Position numbers and translations under genes: made by a program
Part shown: in pieces, positions 1,065 to 18,085 of the stretch
Position numbering within the stretch: the first letter of the stretch is position 1
Layout: the number at the start of each line of letters is the position of its first letter
Source: Desulfurococcaceae archaeon
GTDB lineage: Archaea > Thermoproteota > Thermoprotei_A > Sulfolobales > Desulfurococcaceae
Assembly: GCA_038888155.1 (NCBI GenBank)
Contig: JAWAJB010000016.1
Span: 1-19,016, forward strand
DNA: 19,016 bases
Reading direction: 5' to 3'
The notes under the pieces: model-generated
Database searches by the model: none
Told to the model about the DNA's origin: nothing
The model's input: only the letters and a program-made list of their open reading frames with translations

Positions 1065-2570
1065 ATGTCGAACATTTATCTTGCGACAGAGGGTATAACG
1101 AAGACATTTTCAGGCGTTAAAGCTCTTGACAATGTTTCTATATTCATTAGGAATGGCGAAGTAACCTCTTTAGTCGGCGAGAACGGCGCGGGGAAATCAA
1201 CGCTGGCAAAGATCATCAGCGGTATATATGGCTACGATAAGGGGAAAATTCTCATTAACGGAAAGGAAACAAAATATAGAAATCCACTCGAAGCATTGCT
1301 GAAGTATAGGATTGCATGCGTTCATCAAGATAGTACGTTAATACCTGAAATGAATGTGGTGGAAAATTTCTTTCTCGAGATAGAGAACAAATTCTATAGA
1401 AAAGGTTTGATTTCGTATTCAACAATGAAGGCGGAGTTGCAGAGGTTCTTAAGAGACCTCAATTTTAATAACATTGATGTGGATCTAAAAGCGAAATACT
1501 TAAGGCCTCATGAGGCAAAGCTCATCGAGTTTGCTAAATCACTTTATCATGAGCCTAATTTGCTTATTCTAGATGAGGTTACGGCTCCTTTATCAAGGCA
1601 TGAGGTGGACTTAATTTTTGATCATGTAAAAAGTTTGAAAAACTCTGGGAAAGCAGTAGTCTTTATTTCGCATAGGCTCGCGGAAGTTATGGACATAAGT
1701 GATAGAGTAATAGTTTTGAGGGAGGGGAGAGTGGCCGGTGATCTAGAGGGTAATGAAATTGAGCGTGATCAAATAATTAAGCTCATGATCGGAAAAGATG
1801 TAGTGCTTTCCAAGTACTTCCCCCCGAGAGCCACGAATATAAATTCCAGTAAAAAGATACTAGTGGTTAAAAATTTGAAAGGAAATGGCGTGGATGTAAG
1901 CTTTGATTTAAGAGAGGGCGAGATTTTGGCTTTCGCGGGATTAGGAGGACAAGGAATGTCTGAGGTACTGCGCATGATATACGGCATTCTCCCGAAAGAA
2001 ACTGGGGAGATCTATTTAGATGGTAAAAAGATTGAGATAAAGAATCCGAGAGATGCCATAAGGCATGGATTAATTTATATCTCGGAGAGCAGAGAAGCAG
2101 AGGAGCTGTTTACTAACTTAACGGTAAAAGATAACATAAGTGTGCCCATTCTAGATAAATGCAGCAAGAAAGGCATGATCATGAGAAAAAGAATGAACGA
2201 GCTTATAACGAACATTGTTCAAACATTTTCGATAAAAGCTCCGTCATTAGATGCGATCATCATGCAGCTTAGCGGCGGCAATAGGCAAAAAGTGATTATT
2301 GGAAGATACATCATTAAGGAGCCCAGAGTATTTCTATTCGCGAACCCGACAGTGGGTCTCGATATAAGGACGAAAATGGAGGTATACAGAATCCTAAGAG
2401 ATTTGGCAAATAAGTGTGTCGGAGTAATAGTATATCTTTCAGAGCTTTCAGAAGTAGTCAATCTGCCGGATAGAGTGCTCGTGATGCACTCTGGAAGAAT
2501 TGTAAAAGAGCTGACGGGAGAAGAGATTACGGAGGAAAACGTCTTAAAGGCATACTTCGGAGCGGCTTAA
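1065..2570 (+). CDS. Sugar ABC transporter ATP-binding protein, CUT2 family (RbsA/MglA-like, two NBDs)
   Basis: NBD1 has Walker A GENGAGKST, Walker B LLILDE and H-loop FISHRL. NBD2 has signature LSGGNRQKV with degenerate Walker A (GLGGQGMSE) and Walker B (FLFAN). 501 aa. Confidence 0.95.
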   Translation: MSNIYLATEGITKTFSGVKALDNVSIFIRNGEVTSLVGENGAGKSTLAKIISGIYGYDKGKILINGKETKYRNPLEALLKYRIACVHQDSTLIPEMNVVENFFLEIENKFYRKGLISYSTMKAELQRFLRDLNFNNIDVDLKAKYLRPHEAKLIEFAKSLYHEPNLLILDEVTAPLSRHEVDLIFDHVKSLKNSGKAVVFISHRLAEVMDISDRVIVLREGRVAGDLEGNEIERDQIIKLMIGKDVVLSKYFPPRATNINSSKKILVVKNLKGNGVDVSFDLREGEILAFAGLGGQGMSEVLRMIYGILPKETGEIYLDGKKIEIKNPRDAIRHGLIYISESREAEELFTNLTVKDNISVPILDKCSKKGMIMRKRMNELITNIVQTFSIKAPSLDAIIMQLSGGNRQKVIIGRYIIKEPRVFLFANPTVGLDIRTKMEVYRILRDLANKCVGVIVYLSELSEVVNLPDRVLVMHSGRIVKELTGEEITEENVLKAYFGAA

Positions 2571-2588
2571 ATCTAGAGGTCCATTAAA

Positions 2589-3770
2589 ATGACTACTTCA
2601 AGTTTTTTAGAAAAGGAGGAGCTGAAGATAATTAAGGATCTAAATTTCAACATTTGTTTACAATGTGGAAAATGTACGGCTAGTTGCCCGCTGTTCCAAA
2701 GAACTGGACTAAATCCGAGGACATTGATGAGGAAAACGTTATACTTCGTATTTCCATTGAAAACTTATCCCCCCCTCAGCCTTTCCGAGATTGATGATGT
2801 TTGGGACTGTACAACGTGTAACAATTGCGTGATCCGTTGTCCAAGAGATGCGAAACCCGTGGAAACAATACTGGCCCTCCGAACAATTTTAGTAGAAAGA
2901 GGGAATGTGCCCTCAACAATAAGAGAAGCATTAGAAAGCATCTACAAATTAGGTAATCCATTTGGAATTAGCAATTTTAAAAGAGCTGATTGGGCAAGGG
3001 ATTTAAATATTAAAAAAGCCTCGAGTGAGGGTAAAATCGATTTGCTATACTTCACTGGATGCATCACTTCTTATGATAGCAGAGCCCAAAATATTGCCCG
3101 CTCAATGGCCACCGCATTGAAGATTTCAGAAATAGACTTCTCAATACTTGCCGAGGACGAGAGTTGCTGTGGAAATGAAGTGCATTCCCTAGGAGAAAGG
3201 GGGTTATTTGAGATTCTGATGGAGAAGAACATCGAACTTTTTCAGCGATACGCGGTTAATAAAATCATCACTACATGTCCGCATTGCTTCAATGCGCTAA
3301 GAAATATGTATAGGCTGGAGGATATAGAAGTACAACATCACACGCAATTTCTAGCAGATTTAATTGATAAAAATGCGATTGCTTTTTCCAAGAATATAGA
3401 AAAAAGAATCGCTTTTCACGACCCGTGTTATCTGGCAAAGCATAACAATATATTCGAAGAGCCGAGAAGAATACTCGAGAATGTTCCAGGCGCTATCTTG
3501 CTGGAGCTTGAGCACTCAAGGAGAAATAGTCTCTGCTGCGGATGTGGAGGTGGTAGAATGTGGTATGAGTCTCCCGGAGAAGTTTCGCGCCCGTCGGAAG
3601 ATCGCATTAAAGAGACTATGGATGCGGGAGCCGAAATCCTAGCGGTAGCATGTCCTTTTTGTCTTTCAGAGCTAGAAGACGCTGTTAAAAGGATGGGATG
3701 CGAGGATAAGCTTCAGGTCATGGATGTGGCAGAAATAATGTGTGAGGCCATTGCGGGGTCGCGAATATAG
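2589..3770 (+). CDS. HdrD/GlpC/FadF-like Fe-S oxidoreductase (4Fe-4S dicluster plus two CCG domains)
   Basis: CLQCGKCTASCP and CTTCNNCVIRCP. CCG1: GC...SCCG...TCPHC. CCG2: HDPC...LCCGCGGG...ACPFC. No membrane domain. Confidence 0.92.
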   Translation: MTTSSFLEKEELKIIKDLNFNICLQCGKCTASCPLFQRTGLNPRTLMRKTLYFVFPLKTYPPLSLSEIDDVWDCTTCNNCVIRCPRDAKPVETILALRTILVERGNVPSTIREALESIYKLGNPFGISNFKRADWARDLNIKKASSEGKIDLLYFTGCITSYDSRAQNIARSMATALKISEIDFSILAEDESCCGNEVHSLGERGLFEILMEKNIELFQRYAVNKIITTCPHCFNALRNMYRLEDIEVQHHTQFLADLIDKNAIAFSKNIEKRIAFHDPCYLAKHNNIFEEPRRILENVPGAILLELEHSRRNSLCCGCGGGRMWYESPGEVSRPSEDRIKETMDAGAEILAVACPFCLSELEDAVKRMGCEDKLQVMDVAEIMCEAIAGSRI

Positions 3771-3780
3771 GGTGGTAAAA

Positions 3781-4566
3781 ATGAATATCATAGTTTGCGT
3801 TAAAAGCGTTCCAATAACAATCGGGGCAGAGTTAATGGTCGATGGGTCTAAAAAGAGAGTTGTTTTAGATGGCACTCCTTTTGACATTAATGAGTGGGAT
3901 GAATACGCCCTTGAGGAAGCGGTGCGTCTCAAGGAAAGGCTTGGCGGCAACGTAACGGTTGTGACTGTGAGTTCGCGAAATGTTGATGACGTTATCTTGA
4001 AGTGCCTAGCTAAAGGCGCCGACAGGGCGATTAAAATCGTGGATGAGTCCATTCAAGAATATGATGCCTACGCCGTCGCACGAATACTTCACGCAGTAAT
4101 CAAGAACATGAACTATGACCTAATTTTATGTGGTGCTCAAGCGGGAGATGATGGATACGCGCTAATTGGGGTGATGCTTGCATCCCTGTTAGAAATACCC
4201 TATGCAACGATGGCGAGAAAGCTTGAGTTAATTAACGGTTATGTAAGAGTTACTAGGGAACTTGAAGAAGGGTTTGAGGAAGTCGTCGAAGTGAAGCTTC
4301 CAGCCCTATTAACCATACAAACTGGGATTAACGAGCCGAGATACGCATCAATAATGAGTATTAGGAGAGCAAAGCAGAAAGACATAATCAGTCTTGATTT
4401 AAAGTCCTTAGGCATCATTGAGAGCGATTTTGAAAATCGAATCGAAATCCAGGAATTCTTTATTCCAGAAAAGAAAAAAGAATGTATAATGCTTCATGGC
4501 GATGTAGATGAAATCGTTACAAAAGTTGTGGAAGTATTAATGCAAAGAGGAGCAAGGGGGTTCTGA
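3781..4566 (+). CDS. etfB: Electron transfer flavoprotein beta subunit
   Basis: MNIIVCVKSVP...INEWDEYALEEAVRLKE...GADRAI...CGAQAGDDG...INEPRY. Start moved from track position 3742 to ATG 3781, which gives the typical EtfB N-terminus, follows GGTGG and avoids overlap with the upstream gene. Confidence 0.96.
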   Translation: MNIIVCVKSVPITIGAELMVDGSKKRVVLDGTPFDINEWDEYALEEAVRLKERLGGNVTVVTVSSRNVDDVILKCLAKGADRAIKIVDESIQEYDAYAVARILHAVIKNMNYDLILCGAQAGDDGYALIGVMLASLLEIPYATMARKLELINGYVRVTRELEEGFEEVVEVKLPALLTIQTGINEPRYASIMSIRRAKQKDIISLDLKSLGIIESDFENRIEIQEFFIPEKKKECIMLHGDVDEIVTKVVEVLMQRGARGF

Positions 4567-4567
4567 G

Positions 4568-5545
4568 GTGAAGGAGATATTGATCTTAGCGGAGCATAGG
4601 ATGGGTAAACTTAGGGACATAACCTTTGAAGTGTTAACTAAAGGAAGAGAGCTGGCACGTAAGAATAACGCGCGTTTAACGGCAGTTATCATAGGACACG
4701 ATATTAAGCATTTGGCGGAAGAGCTTGCGTATTATGCTGATGAGGTTTTAATATTTGAGGATCAAAGAGTCAGAGAATTTCACTCAGAATATTACCAACA
4801 AATTCTTTCATCTATAATACTTGATAGAAAGCCTGAGATTATTCTCATACCTCATACGTCTTGTGGAATAGAGCTCGCCCCAAGTCTTGCAATAAAATTG
4901 AATATACCAGTTATAACCGATGTGTTGGACGCATCCTTTGAAAATGGGCAGCTTATAGTGATAAGAGAATATTTTGGTGGAAAATTACGAGCGAGAGTAA
5001 TTTTACGGGGTTCCTCGCATTATATAGCGACTATTCGTGCAGGTATTTCTAAGAGTGAGAAGAGCGAAGTTAAAGGAAGAATTACGGAGATGCGGGGCTT
5101 GAATTTAGCGGATACGCCATATAAGAGAGTTATCGAATTAACTAAGCCGCCTCCTGAGGCTACCGACTTAACATCTGCGGATGTAATAGTTGCCGTGGGT
5201 CGCGGGATTGGTGACGCAAAGAATTTACCTTTAATAGAGGAGTTATCAAGGGCGATCGGAGGCGTCATTGCGTGTTCTCGTCCAATTATTGACATGAGGT
5301 TACTACCAAAGGAGAGGTTAGTGGGTCTTTCTGGAAAGGTTGTAAAGCCCAAGCTGTATATTGCTATAGGCATAAGCGGGCAATTTTATCACGTTTACGG
5401 CATGATGAACTCCGAGCTTATAGTGGCGATAAATAAAGATCCTAATGCGCCCATATTTAATGTAGCGGATTACGGAATCGCGAGGGATATCTTTGAGGTT
5501 CTTCCACGATTAATTAATAAAATAAGAGAAATAAAAGGAGAATAG
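4568..5545 (+). CDS. etfA: Electron transfer flavoprotein alpha subunit
   Basis: LTSADVIVAVGRG...ACSRP...VGLSGKVVKPKLYIAIGISG...IVAINKDPNAPIFNVADYGI. Starts 1 nt after the etfB stop. Confidence 0.97.
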   Translation: MKEILILAEHRMGKLRDITFEVLTKGRELARKNNARLTAVIIGHDIKHLAEELAYYADEVLIFEDQRVREFHSEYYQQILSSIILDRKPEIILIPHTSCGIELAPSLAIKLNIPVITDVLDASFENGQLIVIREYFGGKLRARVILRGSSHYIATIRAGISKSEKSEVKGRITEMRGLNLADTPYKRVIELTKPPPEATDLTSADVIVAVGRGIGDAKNLPLIEELSRAIGGVIACSRPIIDMRLLPKERLVGLSGKVVKPKLYIAIGISGQFYHVYGMMNSELIVAINKDPNAPIFNVADYGIARDIFEVLPRLINKIREIKGE

Positions 5546-5558: not shown

Positions 5559-7937
5559 GTGAGCACCGAAAAAAGCAAAATCGGGGTTTTCATATGTCAC
5601 TGTGGCGGTAATATTAGTGATGTAATTGACGTTGAAAAAGTCAAGGAAGAAATCTCAAAAATTGAAGGAGTTAAGATATGTATAACGCATGAATATGTAT
5701 GCAGCGATCCGGGACAGGAACAAATAGTTAAAGCGATAAGAAATGGTGAGATAGATAGAGTGGTAATAGCTGCGTGCACTCCAAACATGCACATCAATAC
5801 ATTTAGGAGGACTTTGATCTCGGCGGGCTTAAATCCATACCTACTTGAAATAGCGAATATTCGAGAACAATGTAGCTGGGTACATGAAGATAAAGATCTA
5901 GCAACTTTAAAGGCAATAGATTTGGTCCGGGGCGCAGTTGAACGCGCCCGATATTTAGTGCCACTAACCCCATTCAAAATTCAAGTTATTCGCGATGTTT
6001 TGGTAGTTGGAGGCGGCATAGCCGGGATAATAGCATCAATTGAACTCGCTGAGAAAGGTTTCAGGGTATATCTTCTGGAACGTGGTCCAAGCATAGGAGG
6101 ACACATGGCACAATTTACTAAAACTTTCCCAACGCTCGATTGCTCGCAATGCATTCTAACCCCAAAAATGGTGCAAGTCGCGCAAGCCTCCAATGTTAAA
6201 ATTATAACAATGGCCGAGATTGATAAAGTCGATGGATCACCGGGCAGATATAGAGTGCTGATTAGGAAAAAGCCAAGATACGTTGATGCCTCTAAATGCG
6301 TTGCTTGCGGAGAGTGCGAGAAGATATGTCCTGCAAAGGCTCCAAACGAATATGAAGCATACATACTTTATCGAAAAGCTATCTATCAACCATTCAAACA
6401 AGCTATTCCACGTGCATACGTAATAGATGACAAGTGTTGTTTATACATTAATAAGGGCGTTTGCAGGCTTTGCGAGAAGATTTGTAAAGCAAATGCTATA
6501 GACTTTAACCAGAAAGAAGAGCTCCTTGAATTAAATGTTGGAGCAATAGTTGTTTGCACGGGATTTGATCTGTTGGATCCTTCATTGTTAGATGAGTATG
6601 GGTTTGGGAGAACCCCAGATATAGTATCAAATTTGCAATTCGAGAGAATTCTAGCGCATGGGATGCAAAGGCCATCTGACGGTAAAGTCCCCAAGAAGAT
6701 AGCCTTTGTACTTTGCGTTGGCAGTAGATCTAGAAATAAAGAGAATTGTGTTCAACATTGCTGTAAAATAGGTTGCATGATAGCAATCAAACAAGCGTTA
6801 ATAGCTAAAAAAATATCTCCGAACACCGATGCGTGGATATTTTATACTGATGTAAGAGCTGATGGAAAAGGATATGAAGAGTTTTATGTGAAAGCGCAGG
6901 AGGAAGGCATCCATTTCATAAGAGGTTCAGTATCCGAGATTTGTCCAACGAAAGATGGTATACTCATAAAAGCTGAAGATACTGCACTGGGGATAGGCGT
7001 AGAAGAGAAATTTGACTTAGTGGTTTTATCTCCAGCTATAATCCCCAGTCCGGGGGCAAGCGACTTAGCGCGGAAATTGAAACTACAACTAGGAACGGAC
7101 GGCTTCTTCATGGAGCGTCATTACAAGCTTAGCCCTGTTGATAGTCCAAGAGAGGGGATTTTTATAGCTGGCTGCGCGCTCGGACCAAAAGACATTAGAG
7201 AAACAACATTAGAAGCTTCTGCAGCGGCATCAAGAGCAACCACATTTTTGGGGAAAGGAGAGATTGAAGCTTCACCAGAGGTTGCTCAAATAATTGGAGA
7301 GCGGTGCGATAACTGCGGAGCCTGCATTAGCGTTTGCCCAGTCATGGCTATAGAGAAGAAGTCAAGTGGATTAATGGTGGATGTGCTGTCATGCATTGGA
7401 TGTGGGCTTTGCGTTTCAACATGTCCCAGAGGTGCGGTAGATTTACTTAACTCCACGGAAAAGCAGCTTTTGGCTCAAATTCGCGGAATAGCGGAAAGTG
7501 GTGTAAAACCCAAAATTATAGCGTTTCTTGAACGGCAGACAGCGTACGGCTCAGCTGACCTAGCTGGATTATTTAGGATGACATATCCACCGAACGTCGA
7601 AATAATCCGGGTGCCAACTATTGGAAGAATCGGAATAAAACACGTCCTATACGCCTTCGCGATGGGAGCAGACGGTGTAATGCTAGTGGAGGATGAAGGC
7701 GGAGTCCTATCTGAAAAAATCTACAGAGATCACGTCAATAGCATTCGAGACAAGTTACAAAAATATGGATTACATTTCCGATTCTCAGCCATCAGTACCA
7801 CTTTACCGCAATATGACAAGCTAGTGAATGCTCTTAGCGCGATGGTCTCAAGAATAAGTCGGATGGGCCCCTTATCAGAAGATTTACGATTACAGCTTCG
7901 CCAATCATTAAAAATGATGGACACACTTGAAGCCTGA
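5559..7937 (+). CDS. hdrA: Heterodisulfide reductase subunit A-family flavoprotein with a C-terminal cysteine-less MvhD-like domain
   Basis: KIGVFICHCGGNI, AACTP, ANIREQCSWVH, GGGIAG, KTFPTLDCSQCILTPKM, inserted ferredoxin (CVACGECEKICP), CVGSR, AGCALGPKDI, C-terminal ferredoxin (CDNCGACISVCP / CIGCGLCVSTCP), then PKIIAF...AYGSADLAG..RMTYPPNVEIIRV...GADGV. Confidence 0.95.
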   Translation: MSTEKSKIGVFICHCGGNISDVIDVEKVKEEISKIEGVKICITHEYVCSDPGQEQIVKAIRNGEIDRVVIAACTPNMHINTFRRTLISAGLNPYLLEIANIREQCSWVHEDKDLATLKAIDLVRGAVERARYLVPLTPFKIQVIRDVLVVGGGIAGIIASIELAEKGFRVYLLERGPSIGGHMAQFTKTFPTLDCSQCILTPKMVQVAQASNVKIITMAEIDKVDGSPGRYRVLIRKKPRYVDASKCVACGECEKICPAKAPNEYEAYILYRKAIYQPFKQAIPRAYVIDDKCCLYINKGVCRLCEKICKANAIDFNQKEELLELNVGAIVVCTGFDLLDPSLLDEYGFGRTPDIVSNLQFERILAHGMQRPSDGKVPKKIAFVLCVGSRSRNKENCVQHCCKIGCMIAIKQALIAKKISPNTDAWIFYTDVRADGKGYEEFYVKAQEEGIHFIRGSVSEICPTKDGILIKAEDTALGIGVEEKFDLVVLSPAIIPSPGASDLARKLKLQLGTDGFFMERHYKLSPVDSPREGIFIAGCALGPKDIRETTLEASAAASRATTFLGKGEIEASPEVAQIIGERCDNCGACISVCPVMAIEKKSSGLMVDVLSCIGCGLCVSTCPRGAVDLLNSTEKQLLAQIRGIAESGVKPKIIAFLERQTAYGSADLAGLFRMTYPPNVEIIRVPTIGRIGIKHVLYAFAMGADGVMLVEDEGGVLSEKIYRDHVNSIRDKLQKYGLHFRFSAISTTLPQYDKLVNALSAMVSRISRMGPLSEDLRLQLRQSLKMMDTLEA

Positions 7938-8046: not shown

Positions 8047-9120
8047 ATGCCCTCTTCATCTTCCAAAATGAAAGCGGCGGTTTTACTCGATGTTGAAAAA
8101 CTTGAATTCAAAGAGGTCGATATTCCAAAAGTAGGTCCTGGCGAGGTTTTAGTTAAAGTGAAAGCCTGTGGGATCTGCGGCTCCGATGTGTCGATGTATC
8201 GTGGCCGGTATCTTCCAGTGAAGCCTATAATACCAGGCCATGAATTTGCTGGTGATGTTGCCGAAGTAGGTGAGGGTGTGAAATACGTTAAGCCTGGTGA
8301 AAGGGTTGTTGCAGACATAAACGTGTCCTGTGGTGTATGCTATTACTGCAAGAGAATGCAAAAGCTTTTCTGTCCCGACATGTATCAAGTAGGAATCCAT
8401 TCGAATGGTGCCTTCGCCGAGTACATAAAAGTGCCAGAGCAAAATATCATAAAAATCCCAACCGGTGTTAGTTACGAACACGCGGCCTTCATGGAGCCGC
8501 TTTCATGCGTAATTAGTGTCGTGGATAAAGCCAATGTGGCCTTAGGTGATGTTGTCGTTGTGATTGGGGATGGGCCGCTGGGAATCTCCGCAGCAAGACT
8601 TGCAAAACTTTCAGGCGCATCTGCAGTAATAGTATGCGGCCATCATGACTATAGATTGAATAAGGCTAAGGAAATGGGTGCGGATATAATAGTAAACACC
8701 AGTAAAGAGGACCCGCTAGAAGTAGTACTCTCCGAAACCGATAGAAGAGGGGCTGATGTTGTAATAGAAGTTGTTGGAAAGCCAACAACGTATAGATGGG
8801 CTGTTGACATGGTAAGACGGGGCGGAAGAGTTGCTCTAATGGGCGTCCCTGGACCAACGGATAAATTGGAATTGATGATGTTCAATGACATCTTTAATAA
8901 AGAGCTGAGCTTGAACGTATCCTTTGCGGGAACATACGATAAAGGGATAAGAGCATTAGCATTAATTGGATCAAAGAAATTTGACGTTGGCAAAATGATT
9001 ACTCATCGAATAGGGTTAGAAAATTTGCTTGATGGATTGATGATGGTGGAAAGAAAGGCGGATAATGTAATAAAAGTAGTAACTTTGCCAGAAATGAAAG
9101 GCGTGGAAAAACTTCAGTGA
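8047..9120 (+). CDS. Zn-dependent medium-chain dehydrogenase (sorbitol/threonine dehydrogenase-like; probable sugar/polyol dehydrogenase)
   Basis: Catalytic Zn motifs CGICGSD, GHE and EP; structural Zn CGVCYYC...C; Rossmann GDGPLG. ATG 8068 (MKAAVL) is an alternative start. Confidence 0.93.
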   Translation: MPSSSSKMKAAVLLDVEKLEFKEVDIPKVGPGEVLVKVKACGICGSDVSMYRGRYLPVKPIIPGHEFAGDVAEVGEGVKYVKPGERVVADINVSCGVCYYCKRMQKLFCPDMYQVGIHSNGAFAEYIKVPEQNIIKIPTGVSYEHAAFMEPLSCVISVVDKANVALGDVVVVIGDGPLGISAARLAKLSGASAVIVCGHHDYRLNKAKEMGADIIVNTSKEDPLEVVLSETDRRGADVVIEVVGKPTTYRWAVDMVRRGGRVALMGVPGPTDKLELMMFNDIFNKELSLNVSFAGTYDKGIRALALIGSKKFDVGKMITHRIGLENLLDGLMMVERKADNVIKVVTLPEMKGVEKLQ

Positions 9121-10626: not shown

Positions 10627-10658
10627 CCAGCAAAGTTACAGGAAATAAGGTGTTTAGA

Positions 10659-11636
10659 ATGAGAATAGGCATTTTTACAGTGTTATTTAATGATAGGCCT
10701 CTAGAGAAGGTGCTAAAATTCGTTTCTGAGTTGGGTTATGAGGCGATCGAAATTGCTGCGGATAAATGGTCGAATCACATAAATATAGATGATATTCTCA
10801 AGGGTAAAGCAAGTGAATACAAGCGTCTCGTCAGCTCTTATGGCTTGGAGATTTCAGCCCTGAGCAATCATGTTGAGAGCCAATTGATTGGTGGCCCCCA
10901 TGGAGCTGACACGGACACTATTCTCAAGGGCTCCCCTGAGGAGAAGATAAAATATGGTGTCGAGCGCATGAAGAAAACCGCTGAGGCTGCTGCAGCCCTC
11001 GATGTACCGGTGGTTAACGGCTTCGTCGGATGTGAAAATTGGTCAAGGTGGTTTATATGGCCAGGCGGCCTCGAGCTATGGGAAAAAGGGTACGAGAGCG
11101 TCGCCGAGCGCTGGCAGCCCGTTTTAGACGTGTTCGAGGCTCACGGCGTAAAATTCGCCCATGAGCCTCACCCGCAGGAGCAGGCTTACAATACCGAGAC
11201 TGCAGAAGCCCTGCTAAAAGCGCTCAATTATAGGAAATGTTTTGGCTTTAACTTGGATCCGGCGAATCTATTGTGGTGCCTCTGCGATCCAGTAATTTTT
11301 GTGAAAAGATTAGGTGAAAGAGTATTCCATGTGCATGCAAAAGATGCCGAAATAGTGAAGGAAGAGCTTGGCTTCTCTGGCGTTGCGGCGACCGGAGATT
11401 GGCGGAGGATGGATAGAGGATTTAGGTTTAGAGTTGTTGGATGGGGCGATGTTGAATGGAAAAGACTTTTAACGGCGTTGCAGATGGTGGGGTATCAGTA
11501 TGTTTTAAGCGTGGAGCACGAAGATCCATGGATAAATCGTGAGGATGGGTGCAGGAAAGCAATACAGTTCTTGAAACCATTATTACTAGAGCCGATCGAG
11601 AGAGAATGGATAAGGGATAGAGTTGAGAAAAAATAG
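10659..11636 (+). CDS. Sugar phosphate isomerase/epimerase family (xylose-isomerase-like TIM barrel, AP_endonuc_2); ~325-aa subgroup resembling 3-keto-glycoside eliminases (LgdB-like)
   Basis: GLEISALSNH, PVVNGFVG, and metal ligands in FAHEPHP, NLDPAN, FHVHAKD and LSVEHED; also FRVVGWGD. Start is ATG 10659 (with RBS) or GTG 10650. Confidence 0.9.
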   Translation: MRIGIFTVLFNDRPLEKVLKFVSELGYEAIEIAADKWSNHINIDDILKGKASEYKRLVSSYGLEISALSNHVESQLIGGPHGADTDTILKGSPEEKIKYGVERMKKTAEAAAALDVPVVNGFVGCENWSRWFIWPGGLELWEKGYESVAERWQPVLDVFEAHGVKFAHEPHPQEQAYNTETAEALLKALNYRKCFGFNLDPANLLWCLCDPVIFVKRLGERVFHVHAKDAEIVKEELGFSGVAATGDWRRMDRGFRFRVVGWGDVEWKRLLTALQMVGYQYVLSVEHEDPWINREDGCRKAIQFLKPLLLEPIEREWIRDRVEKK

Positions 11637-11703: not shown

Positions 11704-13053
11704 ATGAAAAATGAAGATATTATCAAAGCGAAGGCAGATTTTGTGCAGGACGAGATTAAAAAGATGACCAGAAGAGCTGCCATAGGAACAGGAGCTAGGG
11801 TTGCTCTCGCGGCTGTAGCGGGACTCGTCGTCGGAGGCGTTGCCGGCTATTTCTCGGGCTCTGCTGCAGCTCCGCCTGTAGAAAAAACAGTGACCGAAAC
11901 TAGAACCATCAAAGAAACCGTTACGGTAGCTCCTGCGACAGGAGTTACGACTGTGACCGTTCCAACTACTGTCACCGTGGCAACCCGGCCTTCTGAAGAA
12001 TTACCTTGGATCGGAGATTATCTTTCAGCACCACCGGACCCGGGTTGGACTCAGTGGCCGCGTAGGAATCCTCCATACAAGATTGGTTTTGCATTACCTT
12101 GGACCGGCAACCCATGGAGAAGAATGCAATTGGCAGAGCTAGAAATATTCATGAAAGCGCTACAGGAGGCCGGCTGGGTCGAGGAATATAGAGTTCTCGA
12201 CGCTGGAGGAGACGTCTTGGAGCAGAAGAGGAACATACAGCAGTTGATCGAGTGGGGTTGCGACGCGATGGTAATAGACCCTGTTAGAGGAGAGGCATTA
12301 ATCGAGGATATAGAGCGGGTGACCGACATGGGGGTTTTCACGGGCCTTGAAGTCGAATCTCCTGATCCAGCGCCGTATGGAAAGTTAAGCAAATTCGGAA
12401 TGATATACCAGACGAACTACTACAAGAGCGGATATATTCAAGGAAAATTCGTCGCAGAGACCTTGATAAGAAAACACCCGCCAGAAAAGCGTAAGGTCGC
12501 CGTCTTGAGAGGGATTCCGGGAGCGCCATCAAATACCCAGAGATGGCTTGGTGCCGTACGTGCAATAGAGGAGTATAAGGATAAGGGTGTTGAGATCGTT
12601 GCAGCAGTGGATGCAGAGTGGTCCGTATCTAAGGCGCGAGAAGCTGCCGCAGACATAATCGCATCCAATCCGAATGTCAGAGGATGGGTGAGTCAAGGAG
12701 CCATGATGGAGGCAATGATACCGCTAGCAGTTGCGGATGCAGGGCTAGATCCTAGTGAGCACGCAATCACCGCAGAAGACTTCGTGATGACCATAAGATT
12801 GTATCAACAGTACAAGTTTGACTTATTAATAGTTTGCAACCCGCAGTCCCAGCCAACATATCTAACCTTTGAAATGATAAAATGTCTTAATAGCATACCA
12901 GCGAGAAAGATAAACTACTTTGATCCACCGGTCTTTAGGCCGGAGCAGCTATATGAGCCTTATAAGAATGTATGGGATGAACTGCCGGACGCCGCCCAGC
13001 TTTGCACACCAATGAATCCAGAGCAGCTAAAGAAATTCATTACCACGGTTTAA
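11704..13053 (+). CDS. Sugar ABC transporter substrate-binding protein (periplasmic binding protein type I) with twin-arginine signal/anchor and Thr/Val-rich linker
   Basis: TRRAAI followed by hydrophobic VALAAVAGLVVGGVAGY; linker TVTETRTIKETVTVAPATGVTTVTVPTTVTVAT; YKIGFALPWTGNPWR, QLIEWGCDAMVIDP, VAVLRGIPGAPSNTQRWLG, AEWS. Confidence 0.9.
   Translation: MKNEDIIKAKADFVQDEIKKMTRRAAIGTGARVALAAVAGLVVGGVAGYFSGSAAAPPVEKTVTETRTIKETVTVAPATGVTTVTVPTTVTVATRPSEELPWIGDYLSAPPDPGWTQWPRRNPPYKIGFALPWTGNPWRRMQLAELEIFMKALQEAGWVEEYRVLDAGGDVLEQKRNIQQLIEWGCDAMVIDPVRGEALIEDIERVTDMGVFTGLEVESPDPAPYGKLSKFGMIYQTNYYKSGYIQGKFVAETLIRKHPPEKRKVAVLRGIPGAPSNTQRWLGAVRAIEEYKDKGVEIVAAVDAEWSVSKAREAAADIIASNPNVRGWVSQGAMMEAMIPLAVADAGLDPSEHAITAEDFVMTIRLYQQYKFDLLIVCNPQSQPTYLTFEMIKCLNSIPARKINYFDPPVFRPEQLYEPYKNVWDELPDAAQLCTPMNPEQLKKFITTV
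11881..11985 (+). repeat. Low-complexity (T-V-T)n linker-coding segment inside the binding protein
   Basis: Recurrent ACN-GTN-ACN codon triplets giving TVT five times. Confidence 0.7.
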
Positions 13054-13101
13054 ATCGTAAGACCAGTAAGTCATTCTGCCACGAAAAACCCTTCATACCA
13101 A

Positions 13102-13152
13102 TTTTTTGCGCACCTTTTTACGTGTGCGTGATTGTCTAATCTTTTCTTTTTT
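13102..13152 (+). terminator. Oligo-T terminator region after the binding-protein gene
   Basis: TTTTTT (13102-13107), a weak hairpin GCGCAC-N8-GTGTGC, and CTTTTCTTTTTT (13141-13152). Confidence 0.5.
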
Positions 13153-13279
13153 ACATATGCATGATTGGATCAAAGTGGCGCTTAGGGGTCGCGGGCGTCG
13201 ATACTCTAAATGCTAATCTAATATTACAGGCCTATTGCGCGAGCCGGGATTTTCTTCAGTTTAAGTAAAAAATTGTTAA

Positions 13280-13318: not shown

Positions 13319-14317
13319 ATGTCAGTAGATTCGATGAGATCCACGTTGACAATCTCAACATATCTCAGAAGAGCTAGGAGCTTTATTATGGGGTATTACA
13401 TGTTTATTATTTTAGCTGTTGTTTGGCTGATTTTCGCGGCTATTTCACCCGGCTTTCTTACAGCATCTAATATCTACAGAATTATAATGTTTTCAACACC
13501 ATTGCTGATAGTTTCCTTAGCGCAGAATATAGTAATACTCACTAGGGGATTTGACCTGACAGTAGGCTCCCTAGTCAGCCTAATCACAGTCATAGTATCT
13601 GTTATGATGGATTGGAAATGGCCTCTCATGGTTATAGTTGCAATGGCTCTAGTTGCAGGGCTTATGGTCGGAGCGCTCAACGGCTTCTGCATTTCAAGAT
13701 TTAAGGTGGATCCATTCATAATAACCCTAAGCGTGATGTTCATTCTGGACGGCATCGCGCTGATGATACGTCCAACGCCAGGAGGAGACATTTATCCCGA
13801 ATTCGTTAGCGGTATAATGTTATATGTTAATGGATTCCCGGCAGGGCCTCTAATAATCTTCCTCATAACGGGCGTGATAGGAACGCTTTTCTTAGAACGA
13901 AGATATACCGGACGACTAGTTTATGCTGTTGGATGCGCGGAGGAGCGTGCTCTTCTCAGAGGAATAAACATAAGAAAAATCCTGCTCACAGTATATATTC
14001 TGAGCGGATTATTGGTGAGCATCGGAGGACTAGTTTATACCGCTTACATTCAAATAGGCGATCCAAACCTTGGAGCACCTCTGCTTTTTGCCTCGATAAC
14101 CGCAGTTTTCCTCGGAGGCACAAGCGCAGCTGGCGGTGTGGGAAGATTTCCAAACACTTGTGCTGCAGTACTGCTTATAAGCTCTATAACGACATTTCTA
14201 TTCCAAATACAAGTAATTGCGTGGTACAGATATATCATTAACGGAGTGCTGCTCATCACCTCAGCAATATTCGGTAAATATGTTGTAGAGGCTAGAGTAA
14301 GGACAGGGGGAGTGTGA
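13319..14317 (+). CDS. Sugar ABC transporter permease (RbsC/BPD_transp_2 family)
   Basis: Multiple hydrophobic helices; VILTRGFDLTVGS, DPFIITL, TGRLVYAVG, AVFLGGTS. Confidence 0.95.
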   Translation: MSVDSMRSTLTISTYLRRARSFIMGYYMFIILAVVWLIFAAISPGFLTASNIYRIIMFSTPLLIVSLAQNIVILTRGFDLTVGSLVSLITVIVSVMMDWKWPLMVIVAMALVAGLMVGALNGFCISRFKVDPFIITLSVMFILDGIALMIRPTPGGDIYPEFVSGIMLYVNGFPAGPLIIFLITGVIGTLFLERRYTGRLVYAVGCAEERALLRGINIRKILLTVYILSGLLVSIGGLVYTAYIQIGDPNLGAPLLFASITAVFLGGTSAAGGVGRFPNTCAAVLLISSITTFLFQIQVIAWYRYIINGVLLITSAIFGKYVVEARVRTGGV

Positions 14318-14318
14318 G

Positions 14319-15335
14319 ATGAGCGAGGTAAGAAGAGAGATGAAGGCGAAGCGTGTTAGGGGTGGCATACTATTACTGAAAATCGGAAGAGAGTATCTGA
14401 TTCTCCTCGGAGCCTTCATAGCAATAATGCTTATTGCTGGTTACTTTATACCCGATTTCTGGTCGATTAACTATCAAAAGGAGCTGTTTAGGAGGTCAGC
14501 TATCCTCGGAATTCTCGCAATAGGTCAAGCAATAGTCATGATCGCGAAGGGCGTGGACCTGTCGGTTGGTGCGTCTACGATGACCTTGGCTATAATGGCT
14601 GCGATATTTTTCCGAGAAACCCCGATCCTTATGCAGTACCCCTGGCTCGTAACAGTTCTCATAATCTTACTACTAGGTATATCAATAGGAGTTATAAATG
14701 GATTATTAATAGCTTTTCTAAAGATTCCTCCCGTAGTTGTAACTTTAGGTATGATGACTGCTTTAAGCGGGATCACCCTCGTCTACACCAAGGGATTTCC
14801 TCGAGGCGGATCTCATAAAGTTTTGATGGAATTCATGTCTACTTCCGAAGTTATTGGTATACCTGCCGTGGTATTGATGTGGGTGGTAGTCACGTTGGCC
14901 ATATGGTTTATACTAAGACTCACGAAATACGGCAGGGAAATCTATGCTATTGGATCGAACCCTGTCGCCGCGCATATTTCAGGGATCCACGTAGAAAAAA
15001 TATTAACGTCAGTTTACGCAATTGCTGGACTTTTCGCTGCGGTGTCTAGCTTACTTTACCTCGGAAGAGTTGTAGTTCCAGCCCTTTCGGTGGCTCCGGC
15101 CGGCATTGGTATGGACTTCCTATTAAGTTCATTAGCCATTCCCGTGTTAGGTGGCGTCACTTTTCGAGGCGGTGAGGGCAGCATCGTAGGGGTATTTATA
15201 GCATCGCTGCTCTACGGCACCATAAGGGGAATCCTAATAGCACTGGGATTTGGCACCGCTGGGATATTAATTTTCACAGGTCTGGTAATAGCATTAGTAA
15301 GCATAGTTAAGCAGATAACAGCTCGGCAACAATGA
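14319..15335 (+). CDS. Sugar ABC transporter permease (RbsC/BPD_transp_2 family), second subunit
   Basis: VMIAKGVDLSVG, IPPVVVTLG, YGREIYAIGSNPVAAHISGI, VLGGVTFRGGEGS. Starts 1 nt after the previous stop. Confidence 0.95.
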   Translation: MSEVRREMKAKRVRGGILLLKIGREYLILLGAFIAIMLIAGYFIPDFWSINYQKELFRRSAILGILAIGQAIVMIAKGVDLSVGASTMTLAIMAAIFFRETPILMQYPWLVTVLIILLLGISIGVINGLLIAFLKIPPVVVTLGMMTALSGITLVYTKGFPRGGSHKVLMEFMSTSEVIGIPAVVLMWVVVTLAIWFILRLTKYGREIYAIGSNPVAAHISGIHVEKILTSVYAIAGLFAAVSSLLYLGRVVVPALSVAPAGIGMDFLLSSLAIPVLGGVTFRGGEGSIVGVFIASLLYGTIRGILIALGFGTAGILIFTGLVIALVSIVKQITARQQ

Positions 15336-15344
15336 TCTTTTAAC

Positions 15345-15360: not shown

Positions 15361-15381
15361 TTGATATAGGCGCTAGTGAGC

Positions 15382-16824
15382 ATGGAGGATAGAAGGATGA
15401 TCCAAAATTTAGTTCAGGAGCTGGCCAAGATTGTTGGTTCAGATTTTGTGACTGATGACTACTGGGTTCGACGGAGCTACTCCATGGACTCTAGCATGTT
15501 TGAATTGCTTGATGCAAAGTCGCCAGCAATCGTCGTAAGGCCGGGAAGCATTGAAGAATTACAGGAGATAGTGCGATTGGCGAACAAAACTAAAACACCG
15601 ATCTACGTCAGAGGCGGGGGAACGGCGTGCGCTGGCACGAGAGGAACTAGAATGCATGAATCAATACTTATTGATACGACTAGAATGGATAAGATTGTTG
15701 AGATAGACGAGGAATCGCTCACTGTCACAGCGGAAGCAGGCGTAACTTGGGGAAGATTAAATGCAGAGCTGGAAAAGAAAGGGTGGAGATTAGGTGTTAA
15801 GGGACCATATTCCGGGTACGCGGCGTGCGTGGGAGGAAGTGTTGCATATAACGCGGTTGCATACGCCTCGACAAGGTACGGACTAATTGCTGAGGAGGTC
15901 ATAAGCTTGAAGGTAGTACTACCCAATGGAGACATATTGGTAACGGGAACAGCCACAAATCCTAATGCTAAAAGGTATTATCGATATGCTAATGGCCCGG
16001 ACTTAACTGGGCTATTCATAGGATCGCTGGGAACATTGGGTATAATTGCTGAGGTTACTTTGCGGATGTATCCTAAGGCTGACTACTCAGCTTATGGAGC
16101 CTACGCGTTCAAAGATTATGAAAGCGCGCATGCATGTTATTATAATTGGCTTAAACATTGGGTGGCGGAGGACGTGGCATGGTATTTTGAGGATGGAGTG
16201 AGCGTGATGACCCCTGAGCTATATGAGCAAGGATATGTTTCACTGCTTACCTACGTGGTGGAGGATGTAACAGATGATCTCGTAAATGCGAGAAAGAAAT
16301 TGCTCGACAGCATCGCGCTGAAGTATGGTGGTATACCTCAAAGCCCCGAATACGCCAGACAGGGATGGATATACAGATATGAACTATTACCTCGCTGGGC
16401 TGGGAAGATCGGCATGTGGCAGTGGACATGTCACCTGCAATCCGCTGGAGGTACGCTGAGGGCGCTAAAGACTATTCTTGGATACATAAAGTCTAGAAAG
16501 GAGGAGATGGAGAAGAAGAACGTGTATACGGCCACGGTAAGCGTTGCGGAGAGAAACTGTGGACATATTTCTACTTCAGTTTACTATGATCAAGGCAATC
16601 CAGAATCGGTGGAATTGGCCGTTGGAATGGCGAGGGAGATCGCGAGAATAGGCATGGAGTCCGGAGGTGCAACATATAAGCCTGGAGAACTGTGGTATCC
16701 ACATACGATACTGAAGAATCCCGTATATCGTGAGGCCTTAATCAGAATCAAAAAAGCCTTAGATCCAAATAATATAATGAATCCAGGAGCCCTATCTTTA
16801 CCTGATAAATGGGAGGAGGTGTGA
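15382..16824 (+). CDS. FAD-binding oxidoreductase, VAO/PCMH family (GlcD / D-lactate dehydrogenase-like) with atypical cap domain
   Basis: PAIVVRPGSIEEL, VRGGGT, AEAGVTW, VVLPNGDIL, GPDLTGLFIGSLGTLGII, IKKALDPNNIMNPG. Start is ATG 15382 or GTG 15376. Confidence 0.92.
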   Translation: MEDRRMIQNLVQELAKIVGSDFVTDDYWVRRSYSMDSSMFELLDAKSPAIVVRPGSIEELQEIVRLANKTKTPIYVRGGGTACAGTRGTRMHESILIDTTRMDKIVEIDEESLTVTAEAGVTWGRLNAELEKKGWRLGVKGPYSGYAACVGGSVAYNAVAYASTRYGLIAEEVISLKVVLPNGDILVTGTATNPNAKRYYRYANGPDLTGLFIGSLGTLGIIAEVTLRMYPKADYSAYGAYAFKDYESAHACYYNWLKHWVAEDVAWYFEDGVSVMTPELYEQGYVSLLTYVVEDVTDDLVNARKKLLDSIALKYGGIPQSPEYARQGWIYRYELLPRWAGKIGMWQWTCHLQSAGGTLRALKTILGYIKSRKEEMEKKNVYTATVSVAERNCGHISTSVYYDQGNPESVELAVGMAREIARIGMESGGATYKPGELWYPHTILKNPVYREALIRIKKALDPNNIMNPGALSLPDKWEEV

Positions 16825-16828
16825 GAAA

Positions 16829-18085
16829 ATGATTAACATTATTGAAGAAAAGGCAAAGCAAATGGTATATCGCTGTACTAGATGCGGGTACTGCAGGCTA
16901 ATGTTTCGGGCCAGAGATGAGACAGAACGTGTTTGCCCGCTCATGGATACGACCAGCGGGTTTGAACTATACACTGCAAGAGGAAGGAATTGGATTGCCA
17001 GGCAAATATTAGAAGGTAAGTTAAGTATTGAAAAAATGACGCAGGAGGCTATAAGCGCCATCTACGCTTGCTTTATCTGCGGTAGCTGCACAGAACATTG
17101 CCTTGTTCTTGATCCACGATCATGGGAGAGGTTCCCGAACAACGTATACGACGATCACTTAATCATTAACGATGAGATAACAAGATACCTTAGGAGTTTA
17201 ATAATTGATGTAGGAAGGCCACCATCTGAAGTCCGGGAGGTTCTTAGGAACTACCAGCATTTTAGTAATCCATATGGGAAGTCTAAGGAGGAACGGGGTG
17301 CGTGGGCAAAAAAGCTCGACTTTAAAGTTAAGAATATAGTGGAAGAGGGCGGTACAACTCTACTTTATACCGGGTCTATAGCGCCCTATGAGGAGCGGGC
17401 TGAAAAAGCATTGCTGGCCATAGCTAAAACGCTGAAGCTTGCAAATGTGAATTTCGGCATACTTGGCCCACAAGAAACTGATAGTGGAGCGGAGGCCTAT
17501 GACTTGGGCGAACTGGGGTTATTCGAAGATCTCGCCAAGAAAAATTTAGAAGCATTCAAGAAATACAACATTTCAAAGATAATAACTATTTCGCCGCATG
17601 ATTACAATGTTTTTAAGAGATATTATCCCATGATTCTCGGAGAAGATTGGTCTAAGCTAAATATCGAGGTTCAGCATTATACGCAAGCTATCGCTGAGGC
17701 AATTAAAGATAAAAGAATCACAATGAAGAATAAATTATCAAATATGAAAGTAACATATCATGACCCCTGTTATCTCGGGAGAAAAAATGGAATTTATGAT
17801 GATCCGCGAATGATAATTTCAGCCACTGGGGCAAATTTGATCGAGATGAAGCTATCGCGGCATAATTCCTACTGCTGCGGTGGCGGCGGTGGGGGAAAAT
17901 GGTACAGGCCTCCAGAGAGAACGCGCGCCGAGATTGAAAGAATAAAACAAGCCGCAGGAACTGGTGCAAACGCCATTCTAGTTGCATGCCCTATATGCCT
18001 TACAATGCTAGAAGATGGGGCAAGGAGCACGGGTATTGATATAAAAGTAATGGAGGTTGCCGAATTCCTTATGACTGGAGTTTAA
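16829..18085 (+). CDS. GlcF/HdrD-like Fe-S protein (dicluster, one degenerate and one intact CCG domain), partner of the FAD oxidoreductase
   Basis: CTRCGYC...VCP and CFICGSCTEHC; CCG2 HDPC...YCCGGGGG...ACPIC. Strong RBS GGAGGAGGTG; starts 4 nt after the upstream stop. Confidence 0.92.
   Translation: MINIIEEKAKQMVYRCTRCGYCRLMFRARDETERVCPLMDTTSGFELYTARGRNWIARQILEGKLSIEKMTQEAISAIYACFICGSCTEHCLVLDPRSWERFPNNVYDDHLIINDEITRYLRSLIIDVGRPPSEVREVLRNYQHFSNPYGKSKEERGAWAKKLDFKVKNIVEEGGTTLLYTGSIAPYEERAEKALLAIAKTLKLANVNFGILGPQETDSGAEAYDLGELGLFEDLAKKNLEAFKKYNISKIITISPHDYNVFKRYYPMILGEDWSKLNIEVQHYTQAIAEAIKDKRITMKNKLSNMKVTYHDPCYLGRKNGIYDDPRMIISATGANLIEMKLSRHNSYCCGGGGGGKWYRPPERTRAEIERIKQAAGTGANAILVACPICLTMLEDGARSTGIDIKVMEVAEFLMTGV

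Follow-up and report, generated by a model that had tools for sequence, protein, structure and literature searches.

What would a sugar-type importer, a set of enzymes that may act on a keto-sugar and a series of flavin- and iron-sulfur (FeS)-dependent electron carriers do together in a single archaeal gene cluster? The question is raised by a contig assigned to a Desulfurococcaceae archaeon (JAWAJB010000016.1, assembly GCA_038888155.1), which was analyzed at its full length of 19,016 nucleotides (nt) and is hereafter called the window (contig C16 of the 2.42-Mb, 134-contig assembly). Here, 13 genes lie head to tail on the forward strand between positions 1065 and 18085, with intergenic spacing ranging from a 29-nt overlap to 265 nt. 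An earlier note on this DNA had proposed that the cluster imports an unusual sugar, cyclitol or glycoside and processes it unphosphorylated, with the electrons passing through CCG proteins and Etf to HdrA. We find that the cluster combines, in a mosaic, three modules that also occur separately, and estimate, with a probability of roughly 55%, that it is a catabolic cluster of an uncultured hot-spring archaeon, maintained by selection, that processes an imported, unphosphorylated sugar-like compound and hands electrons to CCG and Etf proteins. The class of the substrate, the electron partners, the direction of electron flow and any bifurcation are what we infer on top of the observed gene content, conservation and motifs.

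Conservation of the cluster and separate occurrence of its modules

Pfam placed all 13 co-oriented genes in the families claimed for them by the earlier note (Table 1). None of the 10 proteins scanned reached an NCBIfam equivalog cut-off; family membership is evident throughout, precise function is not. The absence of a kinase, aldolase, glycoside hydrolase, acyl-CoA dehydrogenase, hydrogenase and regulator, also noted earlier, holds for the 13 genes and the two flanking genes in the Pfam comparison. The reported lack of HdrB and HdrC is not a true gap: HdrD is a homolog of fused HdrC and HdrB, according to the available part of PMC2702500, and the HdrD-like protein encoded here (HdrD1) contains two CCG motifs.

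A metagenome-contig scan based on HdrA retained 80 loci out of 283 relatives, one of which (L065) is the window contig itself. Two others (L066 and L067, 99.3% identical to each other) contain all 13 genes in the same order, with 72-95% amino-acid identity to the window, and a third version (L068, 82% identical to L066) encompasses the genes from EtfA through permease 1, again in the same order, up to the contig ends. The three sequence versions (the window, L066/L067 and L068) are ~77-82% identical at the nucleotide level. Between the window and L066, synonymous divergence is near saturation (pS of 0.59-0.74), and the dN/dS ratios are in the range of 0.015 to 0.085 for all 13 genes. The arrangement is not accidental, and the cluster is maintained by purifying selection. 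Because the flanks of the L066 copy, which include genes for an IS605-type OrfB, a GHMP kinase and a pyridoxal phosphate-dependent enzyme, are unlike those of the window, the cluster appears to be conserved, and to travel, as a unit. The IS605-type OrfB (TnpB-like) gene occupies positions 2-751 of L066, ~3.8 kb upstream of the cluster copy.

The Etf/Hdr and sugar blocks also co-occur elsewhere, the point on which the earlier note had staked its proposal: together in L066/L067, in part in L068, in Bathyarchaeia and in another metagenome locus, L072. No close ortholog was found in the nominal class for either HdrA (best identity 50% among 351 genomes) or the PreA-like protein (best identity 35% among 41 relatives).

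We denote as M1 the genes for a xylose-isomerase-like TIM barrel, a PreA-like enzyme and a Zn-dependent dehydrogenase (ZnADH); as M2 the transporter together with the GlcD-like enzyme, its CCG partner (CCG2), HdrD and EtfAB; and as M3 the gene for HdrA. An alignment-based scan of species-representative genomes for M1 yielded 15 loci, in Atribacterota, Aerophobetes, 'Profundicultor' and one Bathyarchaeia metagenome-assembled genome (MAG). Among the 12 loci with a PreA identity of at least 62%, the TIM-barrel gene is adjacent or nearby in seven and the ZnADH gene in six, the rest being short contigs; CUT2 transporter genes adjoin M1 in five loci. In two Atribacterota loci (L022 and L023), M1 is accompanied by genes for a regulator of the GntR/UTRA type, a cupin, a kinase of the FGGY family, an aldehyde dehydrogenase and GFO/IDH/MocA oxidoreductases. 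The order there (positions ~4800-12400) is regulator, cupin, kinase, aldehyde dehydrogenase, (GFO/IDH/MocA, CUT2), TIM barrel, PreA-like, ZnADH. This conserved bacterial operon seems to encode a separate sugar pathway that has not been described.

A search of 401 sampled genomes from the class of the M1-bearing Bathyarchaeia MAG identified an ortholog of the GlcD-like enzyme (~58-68% identity) in four of them, and in all four CCG2 is encoded directly 3' of it. One relative (P0221) is a fusion of GlcD, Fer4 and two CCG domains, which supports GlcD and CCG2 as partners. In two of the four genomes (G379 and G382; loci L177/L179), the GlcD/CCG2 pair (68% and 56% identity) is found with orthologs of the importer ATPase (58%), permeases (54-56%) and substrate-binding protein (62%) as well as of HdrD (45%) and EtfAB (46-49%). 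Further genes of this island encode a different TIM barrel, a cupin, an oxidoreductase of the luciferase-like type, a GFO/IDH/MocA protein and an FGGY kinase. Orthologs of HdrD1, at 72, 64 and 45-51% identity, adjoin etfBA in five other loci; HdrD and etfBA are neighbors in the window, L066, L071, L118, L131 and L177/L179.

As for M3, EtfA, or EtfB and EtfA, are encoded directly upstream of HdrA in six of the eight loci with an HdrA identity of at least 75%, the other two being contigs of at most 3.2 kb. In L071, the order is CCG2-like, HdrD, EtfB, EtfA, HdrA, and in L072 it is EtfB, EtfA, HdrA, followed by a CUT1 sugar-type transporter, a Zn-dehydrogenase and a luciferase-like gene. Across these neighborhoods, the lasting partnership is thus that of GlcD/CCG2, HdrD/EtfAB and a sugar-type transporter; HdrA and M1 were joined to it in the lineage of the window, HdrA as a lineage-specific addition. 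HdrA and the ZnADH/PreA/TIM triad are therefore separable add-ons outside the conserved core.

Luciferase-like genes are found near the respective Etf loci in both L179 (15305-16312) and L072 (8414-8746), and their products are 49.5% identical over 103 residues; the luciferase-like oxidoreductase is a possible further recurring partner. A pathway common to the M1 loci of Atribacterota and the M2 island of Bathyarchaeia found no support: the accessory genes that they share are mostly 23-33% identical, with the exception of one GFO/IDH/MocA pair (47%) and the luciferase-like pair (49.5%).

Features, expression and host of the cluster

Table 1. Features of the window (coordinates in nt from its first letter).
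Feature	Position	Strand	Basis
Metallophos flank gene	1-576	-	Pfam
TATA-box-like archaeal element TTTAAATA, putative promoter	1026..1033	+	~32 nt upstream of first ATG; read in sequence
ABC ATPase, CUT2-type, two fused ABC domains	1065..2570	+	Pfam ABC_tran, 2 stretches
HdrD-like soluble FeS protein (HdrD1)	2589..3770	+	Pfam Fer4_8 + CCG, 2 stretches
EtfB	3781..4566 (open reading frame opens at 3742; likely start 3781)	+	Pfam ETF
EtfA	4568..5545	+	Pfam ETF + ETF_alpha
HdrA-type FAD/FeS flavoprotein fused to C-terminal FlpD/MvhD-like domain	5559..7937	+	NCBIfam HdrA2, Pfam FlpD
Zn-dependent medium-chain dehydrogenase (ZnADH; polyol/threonine/sorbitol dehydrogenase-like)	8047..9120	+	Pfam ADH_N + ADH_zinc_N
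PreA-like FMN enzyme, C-terminal 2x[4Fe-4S]	9199..10509 (open reading frame opens at 9160)	+	Pfam DHO_dh + Fer4
Xylose-isomerase-like TIM barrel	10650..11636	+	Pfam AP_endonuc_2
CUT2 substrate-binding protein, membrane-anchored	11704..13053	+	Pfam Peripla_BP_4
T-runs 3' of binding-protein gene	13100..13155	+	sequence; abundant X15 RNA contig stops at 13102
ABC permease 1	13319..14317	+	Pfam BPD_transp_2; 9 hydrophobic segments
ABC permease 2	14319..15335	+	Pfam BPD_transp_2; 10 hydrophobic segments
GlcD/D-LDH-fold FAD dehydrogenase, separate subfamily	15376..16824	+	Pfam FAD_binding_4 (7.6e-40)
CCG protein (CCG2)	16829..18085	+	Pfam Fer4_8 + CCG, 1 stretch
Cytosine/purine permease flank gene	from 18297		Pfam
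FAD, flavin adenine dinucleotide; FMN, flavin mononucleotide; D-LDH, D-lactate dehydrogenase.

Among 22 listed public runs, 18 contain the stretch; they come from 9 studies, are mostly labelled as hot-spring metagenomes and may include the source sample. RNA-library contigs of the metatranscriptome X15 extend over 27 of 30 bins, at a depth of 80-157 over the binding-protein gene and of 0-21 over the remainder, compared to a flat 14.5-17.1 across the cluster in the DNA run X10; this unevenness argues for true transcripts, at least of the binding-protein gene. In a second RNA library (X18), the binding-protein region alone is covered, which we do not count as evidence of absence elsewhere. The T-runs downstream of the binding-protein gene could represent a partial terminator that keeps its mRNA in excess. 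The abundant X15 contig (depth 157) is a circular permutation of a 1383-nt unit (11720-13102) that covers the binding-protein open reading frame. The joint of this unit was seen in no DNA run, and pairing of its ends is no better than that of shuffled sequences (-23.2 vs -19.8 +/- 3.7 kcal/mol); the contig could be an assembly artefact, a product of template switching or a circular RNA.

In the DNA runs X10 and X14, the depth of the flanks (1-520 and 18290-19016) exceeds that of the 17.5-kb cluster (390-18320) by a factor of 5-12, the flank depth in X10 being 76-187. The assembly breaks at ~391-405 and 18293-18421, and in two runs the contigs part from the window beyond position 513. Probably, the cluster is an island that varies between strains and is present in only a minority of the population.

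The genome bin is chimeric, mixing at least two archaea: its two archaeal 16S genes (C31:5764-7287 and C4:1-1115) are only 80.8% identical over 950 nt, and the assembly of 2.42 Mb compares to 0.9-1.5 Mb in 16 genomes of the same genus. Genome-wide presence/absence arguments were therefore dropped. The flank genes show 31-41% identity to genomes of the nominal genus (up to 46% when the same order is included) and 34-35% identity to five Bathyarchaeia genomes; contig C4 bears its own Metallophos paralog. An archaeal host fits the TTTAAATA box before the first ATG and the RR signal/anchor with a Thr/Val-rich linker on the binding protein.

Two AT-rich stretches of 27 nt, 81% alike, lie just 3' of the stop codons of the ZnADH gene (9124-9150) and the last gene (18130-18156) and may be terminator or regulatory elements. 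The Rfam scan of the window gave no match. Two shadow open reading frames only were scanned, at 139-585 (+ strand, over the Metallophos gene) and 18209-18712 (- strand, over the permease gene).

A proposed route of electrons and its alternatives

The CUT2 importer set is complete, comprising the ATPase with its two fused domains, a pair of BPD_transp_2 permeases and the Peripla_BP_4 binding protein. The ATPase gene is parted from those of the binding protein and the permeases by seven genes, those of the Etf/Hdr set and M1. The top NCBIfam matches of the ATPase are xylose, arabinose and ribose ATPases, every one under the cut-off, and the binding protein, in which the RR signal/anchor is followed by the Thr/Val-rich linker and the Peripla_BP_4 domain, shows weak PDB matches to monosaccharide binders only. 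The importer can be predicted to bring an unphosphorylated sugar-like compound (a monosaccharide, polyol, cyclitol or anhydro/glyco-sugar) into the cell.

Among the M1 enzymes, ZnADH matches the NCBIfam models Tdh (244 bits) and IolM (201 bits; cut-off 450), both under the cut-off, and, in the PDB, 4ej6, Tdh and sorbitol dehydrogenase. The TIM barrel is most similar to 2zds (E 1e-50) and, over residues 18-319, to the 2-hydroxy-3-keto-glucal hydratase 8ro4_A (E 1e-26), a match at the level of the family only. The PreA-like enzyme, which most likely starts at 9199 (the 436-aa database form), scores 125.7 bits against the PreA equivalog (cut-off 335); it is distantly related to dihydropyrimidine dehydrogenase (DPD) and retains the DPD/DHODH-type Asn and Cys in an 'NTGC' active site (N172 and C175, invariant in 17 sequences). 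No PreT/GltD-like partner of this enzyme was detected in the window by Pfam. In the scenario preferred below, M1 would act on the keto-sugar by oxidation (ZnADH), hydration, dehydration or elimination (TIM barrel) and reduction of a C=C bond (PreA-like), the PreA-like enzyme being a plausible internal electron sink. This enzyme belongs to a family of C=C reductases/dehydrogenases, so that the successive oxidations envisaged by the earlier note are one reading among others. The Thermotoga-type myo-inositol pathway was not recognized in the window, with IolM at the score given above, IolO at 29.9 bits (cut-off 300) and no IolG-type gene.

The cysteine map of HdrD1 shows a pair of CxxCxxCxxxC ferredoxin motifs along with two CCG motifs in which no cysteine is missing (C158/C193C194/C230xxC233 and C280/C316C317/C355xxC358), C230 or C233 being variable in four of six orthologs. 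It has no hydrophobic segment (no 19-residue window with a Kyte-Doolittle mean of at least 1.6), and no transmembrane segment was found in any redox protein of the cluster. In mycobacterial EtfD, an electron wire from ETF to an HdrD-like protein has been demonstrated structurally (available part of PMC13083937); a transfer from EtfAB to HdrD1 would be the cytoplasmic counterpart of this wire.

The true start of EtfB is likely 3781, judging from the alignment of orthologs. Its nucleotide 'zipper', positioned by eye, reads D-D-G-Y-A-L (4147-4164; residues 136-141 of the 274-aa open reading frame, or 123-128 counted from 3781), with the D-D-G invariant across six orthologs. Typing of the Etf by PDB similarity was tried and abandoned given the mixed signal: EtfB is closest to 1o94_C, which we take to be a canonical AMP-binding ETF, and next to 5ol2_B, and EtfA is closest to CarE, C. 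difficile EtfA and LctC, that is, to the EtfA of bifurcating complexes. The predicted complex of EtfA, EtfB and HdrD1 scored 0.65, and the control with EtfA replaced 0.63, so that the prediction was given no weight in either direction.

HdrA matches NCBIfam HdrA2 with 842 bits (cut-off 1100) over positions 1-773 of 777, with 7-771 covered, and contains a GxGxxG motif and three CxxCxxCxxxC motifs. In its MvhD-like domain (residues ~650-792, window 7506-7937; Pfam FlpD at 653-770), all six MvhD cysteines are replaced, as found by alignment to solved MvhD chains including 8rvu_F, so this domain cannot hold a Cys-ligated [2Fe-2S] cluster; the last cysteine of the protein is at or before residue 622. 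The cysteines at the MvhD positions are absent in all 14 HdrA relatives examined, down to 59% identity; in three of them, the final 150 residues contain one or two cysteines at other places. The HdrA clade whose MvhD-like domain lacks a cluster is thus a large one, the 14 examined of the 80 metagenome loci all being cysteine-free at these positions.

Under the scenario that we prefer, the GlcD-like flavoprotein and CCG2 would oxidize the substrate or a product thereof, and the electrons would pass through a non-canonical EtfAB to the soluble HdrD1. Given that there is no membrane or quinone link, HdrA would take over the electrons. HdrA and HdrD would make up a complete HdrA/HdrBC-like unit, with HdrA added beside EtfBA in this lineage, and it is most likely at the HdrA flavin that these electrons, of mid to high potential, would be tied to ferredoxin, through either confurcation or bifurcation. 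The recurring association of a transporter with Etf and HdrD supports the core of the earlier interpretation, namely catabolism of an unphosphorylated sugar or polyol wired to CCG and Etf proteins; of the details, the HdrB/C gap is filled by HdrD, bifurcation by Etf is doubtful and HdrA is a lineage-specific addition.

Several observations weigh against this scenario. The EtfB zipper matches the consensus neither of bifurcating ETFs (D-G-D-T-A-Q, with Thr in 100% and Gln/His in 100%) nor of canonical, group 1 ETFs (D-D-D-x-N-Q, with the third Asp in 98%, Asn in 98% and Gln in 92%), as these are given in the available part of PMC8958531. EtfB could possibly represent a third ETF type; the lack of bifurcating-type residues makes Etf-based bifurcation doubtful. 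The cysteine-free MvhD-like domain leaves it unclear how electrons enter HdrA, and no ortholog-level match names the substrate, the NCBIfam scores being under the cut-offs and the PDB matches of the binding protein weak. The modules also occur without each other: Etf, Hdr, GlcD and CCG2 homologs are absent from all 15 M1 loci, in flanks of up to 10 kb; neither HdrA nor M1 was found near M2 in G379 and G382; and among the 72 loci with an HdrA of 59-64% identity, EtfAB is encoded beside HdrA in only two (70 have none in the stretch). No RNA cover was seen in X15 at 5073-6974, although such a hole proves nothing, none of the listed RNA contigs bridges a module junction, and the parts with low RNA depth could be DNA carry-over. 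Finally, with a chimeric bin, the rest of the host metabolism is beyond inference.

A more far-reaching version, which we regard as unlikely, is that HdrA, HdrD1, EtfAB and GlcD-like/CCG2, perhaps with the PreA-like enzyme, form a soluble bifurcating or confurcating supercomplex of a further class. Here, HdrA would be fed by Etf in place of a hydrogenase, formate dehydrogenase (Fdh) or Flx module, the cluster-less MvhD-like domain would serve as a docking piece, and oxidation of a sugar or polyol, possibly along with reduction of a sugar-derived enone, would be coupled to ferredoxin.

Another reading, rather improbable in our assessment, would make the redox block ordinary and its neighbors alone unusual: GlcD-like/CCG2 together with HdrD, EtfAB and HdrA would be an archaeal lactate/glycolate dehydrogenase system that oxidizes sugar-derived D-lactate or another 2-hydroxyacid. 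The GlcD-like enzyme, with its PCMH-type FAD domain and overall two-domain fold (AlphaFold 2 model with a pLDDT of 94.6), indeed has its best profile matches among D-lactate dehydrogenases (E 1e-84), with LctD of Ldh-EtfAB also matched (E 4.6e-71), and its Foldseek TM scores to mouse D-LDH are 0.78-0.80. GlcD/HdrD pairs have moreover been discussed as lactate-linked (available parts of PMC6421429 and PMC3949148). Against this reading, AGPS (alkyl-DHAP synthase) is equally close in fold (TM 0.80-0.83), and the match to the NCBIfam glcD equivalog (128.2 bits, cut-off 567.9) spans residues 53-253, the FAD domain alone. The positions of the metal-binding His/His/Glu of D-LDH, residue identities that we assume here apart from H405, which is named in PDB titles, are occupied by E392, S399 and P436 in the profile alignment, and in the 60-sequence family alignment the three columns are dominated by V/S/C, S/V/L and I/L/M, His and Glu not being conserved. 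The enzyme thus lacks the 2-hydroxyacid metal site that an assignment as a 2-hydroxyacid-type GlcD would imply; no lactate-producing enzyme is encoded in the cluster, and the GlcD-like/CCG2 pair travels with the transporter. Because only one 50%-cluster representative among 1.84 billion proteins is more than 50% identical to it over the full length, the GlcD-like subfamily appears to be small and distinct. In CCG2, the cysteine map contains two FeS motifs and one intact CCG motif; since the first CCG domain has lost its cysteines, an electron relay seems likelier than a disulfide reductase.

It is likewise quite unlikely that the flow is reductive, with NADH from ZnADH entering via Etf and the Etf/HdrD/HdrA proteins splitting its electrons between ferredoxin and enone reduction by the PreA-like enzyme, in the manner of Bcd-EtfAB or CarCDE but with PreA-like replacing acyl-CoA dehydrogenase. 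That the PreA-like enzyme is a member of the DHO_dh/DPD family, which reduces C=C bonds, and keeps the 'NTGC' Asn and Cys is compatible with such a role, as are its own 2x[4Fe-4S] entry domain in a window without a PreT-like partner, the position of hdrA directly upstream of the ZnADH and PreA-like genes, and the affinity of EtfA to those of bifurcating complexes. However, the EtfB zipper lacks both the Thr invariant in bifurcating ETFs and the Gln (PMC8958531, as above), the PreA-like module is devoid of Etf and Hdr in each of its 15 genome loci, HdrD and EtfAB travel with GlcD/CCG2 rather than with the PreA-like gene, and L071 and L072 encode EtfBA-HdrA with no PreA-like gene in the stretch.

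The least probable alternative is adjacency without coupling, in which a strain-variable island would merely pack the importer and M1 beside a general redox-balancing Etf/Hdr/GlcD set: the separate occurrence of all three modules, the low depth of the cluster between deeper flanks in X10, the loose end at 513 in two runs and the IS605-type transposase gene near the L066 copy would fit it, but the same order persists in three versions despite near-saturated synonymous change, with strong purifying selection on 13 of 13 genes, transporter genes are interleaved with redox genes, and Etf/HdrD is combined with a sugar-type transporter in three distinct arrangements (the window, G379/G382 and L072).

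Relation to known systems and implications

Every piece of the cluster has a precedent, and the cluster is not a member of any one known system. As in ETF:EtfD (and the FadF, DgcB and HdrF-EtfBA clusters), HdrD1 combines two [4Fe-4S] with two CCG domains and is encoded next to etfBA, and an hdr-like gene clustered with etfBA has been described in Desulfobacterium (PMC2702500, available part). Unlike HdrD1, in which no hydrophobic segment was found, EtfD has five transmembrane helices and heme b and feeds menaquinone (PMC13083937, available part); furthermore, HdrD1 adjoins the HdrA flavoprotein, and the upstream dehydrogenase is not an acyl-CoA dehydrogenase. With the flavin-based bifurcating heterodisulfide reductases HdrABC-MvhAGD, HdrA2B2C2 and FlxABCD-HdrABC the cluster shares a full-length HdrA and an HdrBC equivalent (HdrD), all soluble, but there is no hydrogenase, Mvh, Fdh, Flx or F420 donor module among the 13 genes and the flanks; the [2Fe-2S] entry cluster of the MvhD type is missing, and EtfAB stands in the place of the donor module. 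A pairing of Etf with HdrA is absent from the 12 bifurcating complexes catalogued in the available part of PMC6085437.

Similarly to the confurcating lactate dehydrogenase Ldh-EtfAB (LctBCD) and to the GlcD/HdrD pairs that have been proposed in Bathyarchaeota, Verstraetearchaeota and Archaeoglobus (PMC6421429 and PMC3949148, available parts), the gene for a flavoprotein of the GlcD fold is accompanied by those for EtfAB, for an HdrD-like CCG protein or for both. The cluster differs from these in lacking the D-LDH His/His/Glu and the bifurcating EtfB motif and in possessing two CCG proteins and HdrA, inside a sugar importer operon.

The non-hydrolytic 3-keto-glycoside pathway of Agrobacterium consists of a glycoside 3-dehydrogenase, the beta-eliminase OGE, the hydratase AtHYD and a Gfo-type reductase (PMC10628242, available part). 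The TIM barrel encoded in the window is homologous to the solved hydratase (8ro4), and the logic of oxidation, elimination or hydration, and reduction of an unphosphorylated sugar would be the same as outlined there. In contrast to that pathway, dehydrogenases of the GMC and GFO/IDH/MocA families and a second eliminase of the TIM-barrel type are absent from the window, with ZnADH and the PreA-like enzyme instead, and the closer PDB relative of the TIM barrel, 2zds, has no assigned function; GFO/IDH/MocA genes are present in the related loci L022, L023 and L179. With the PreT/PreA dihydropyrimidine dehydrogenase, the PreA-like enzyme has in common the FMN TIM barrel, the C-terminal 2x[4Fe-4S] and the conserved Asn...Cys motif, but it falls far below the PreA cut-off, has no PreT, and is encoded next to a TIM-barrel sugar enzyme, ZnADH and sugar transporters in several phyla. 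A literature search, in which subscription papers and supplements were thinly covered, found no description of the combination seen in this cluster or of a PreA-like sugar module, in line with the earlier note, which had not recognized the combination as a described pathway.

The TIM/PreA-like/ZnADH triad, which adjoins sugar transporter genes in Atribacterota and Aerophobetes as well as in archaea, has the look of a keto-sugar module not yet described, the hosts of which are abundant uncultured subsurface and hot-spring anaerobes. Because the parts are small and soluble, and the substrate can be approached directly through the binding protein, these ideas are open to experiment. If the coupling proposed here is true, a sugar- or polyol-linked entry would be added to the short list of Hdr- and Etf-based bifurcating or confurcating systems, and an Etf feeding an HdrA/HdrD unit would be a pairing outside the 12 complexes in the available part of PMC6085437. 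The pairs of GlcD and HdrD that have long been known from Bathyarchaeota and their archaeal relatives would then acquire a concrete, testable function, as would the large HdrA clade with the cysteine-free MvhD-like domain. Should the components indeed form a supercomplex, a fermenting archaeon could use the redox chemistry of sugars as a direct means of energy conservation, with no need for thiol cofactors.

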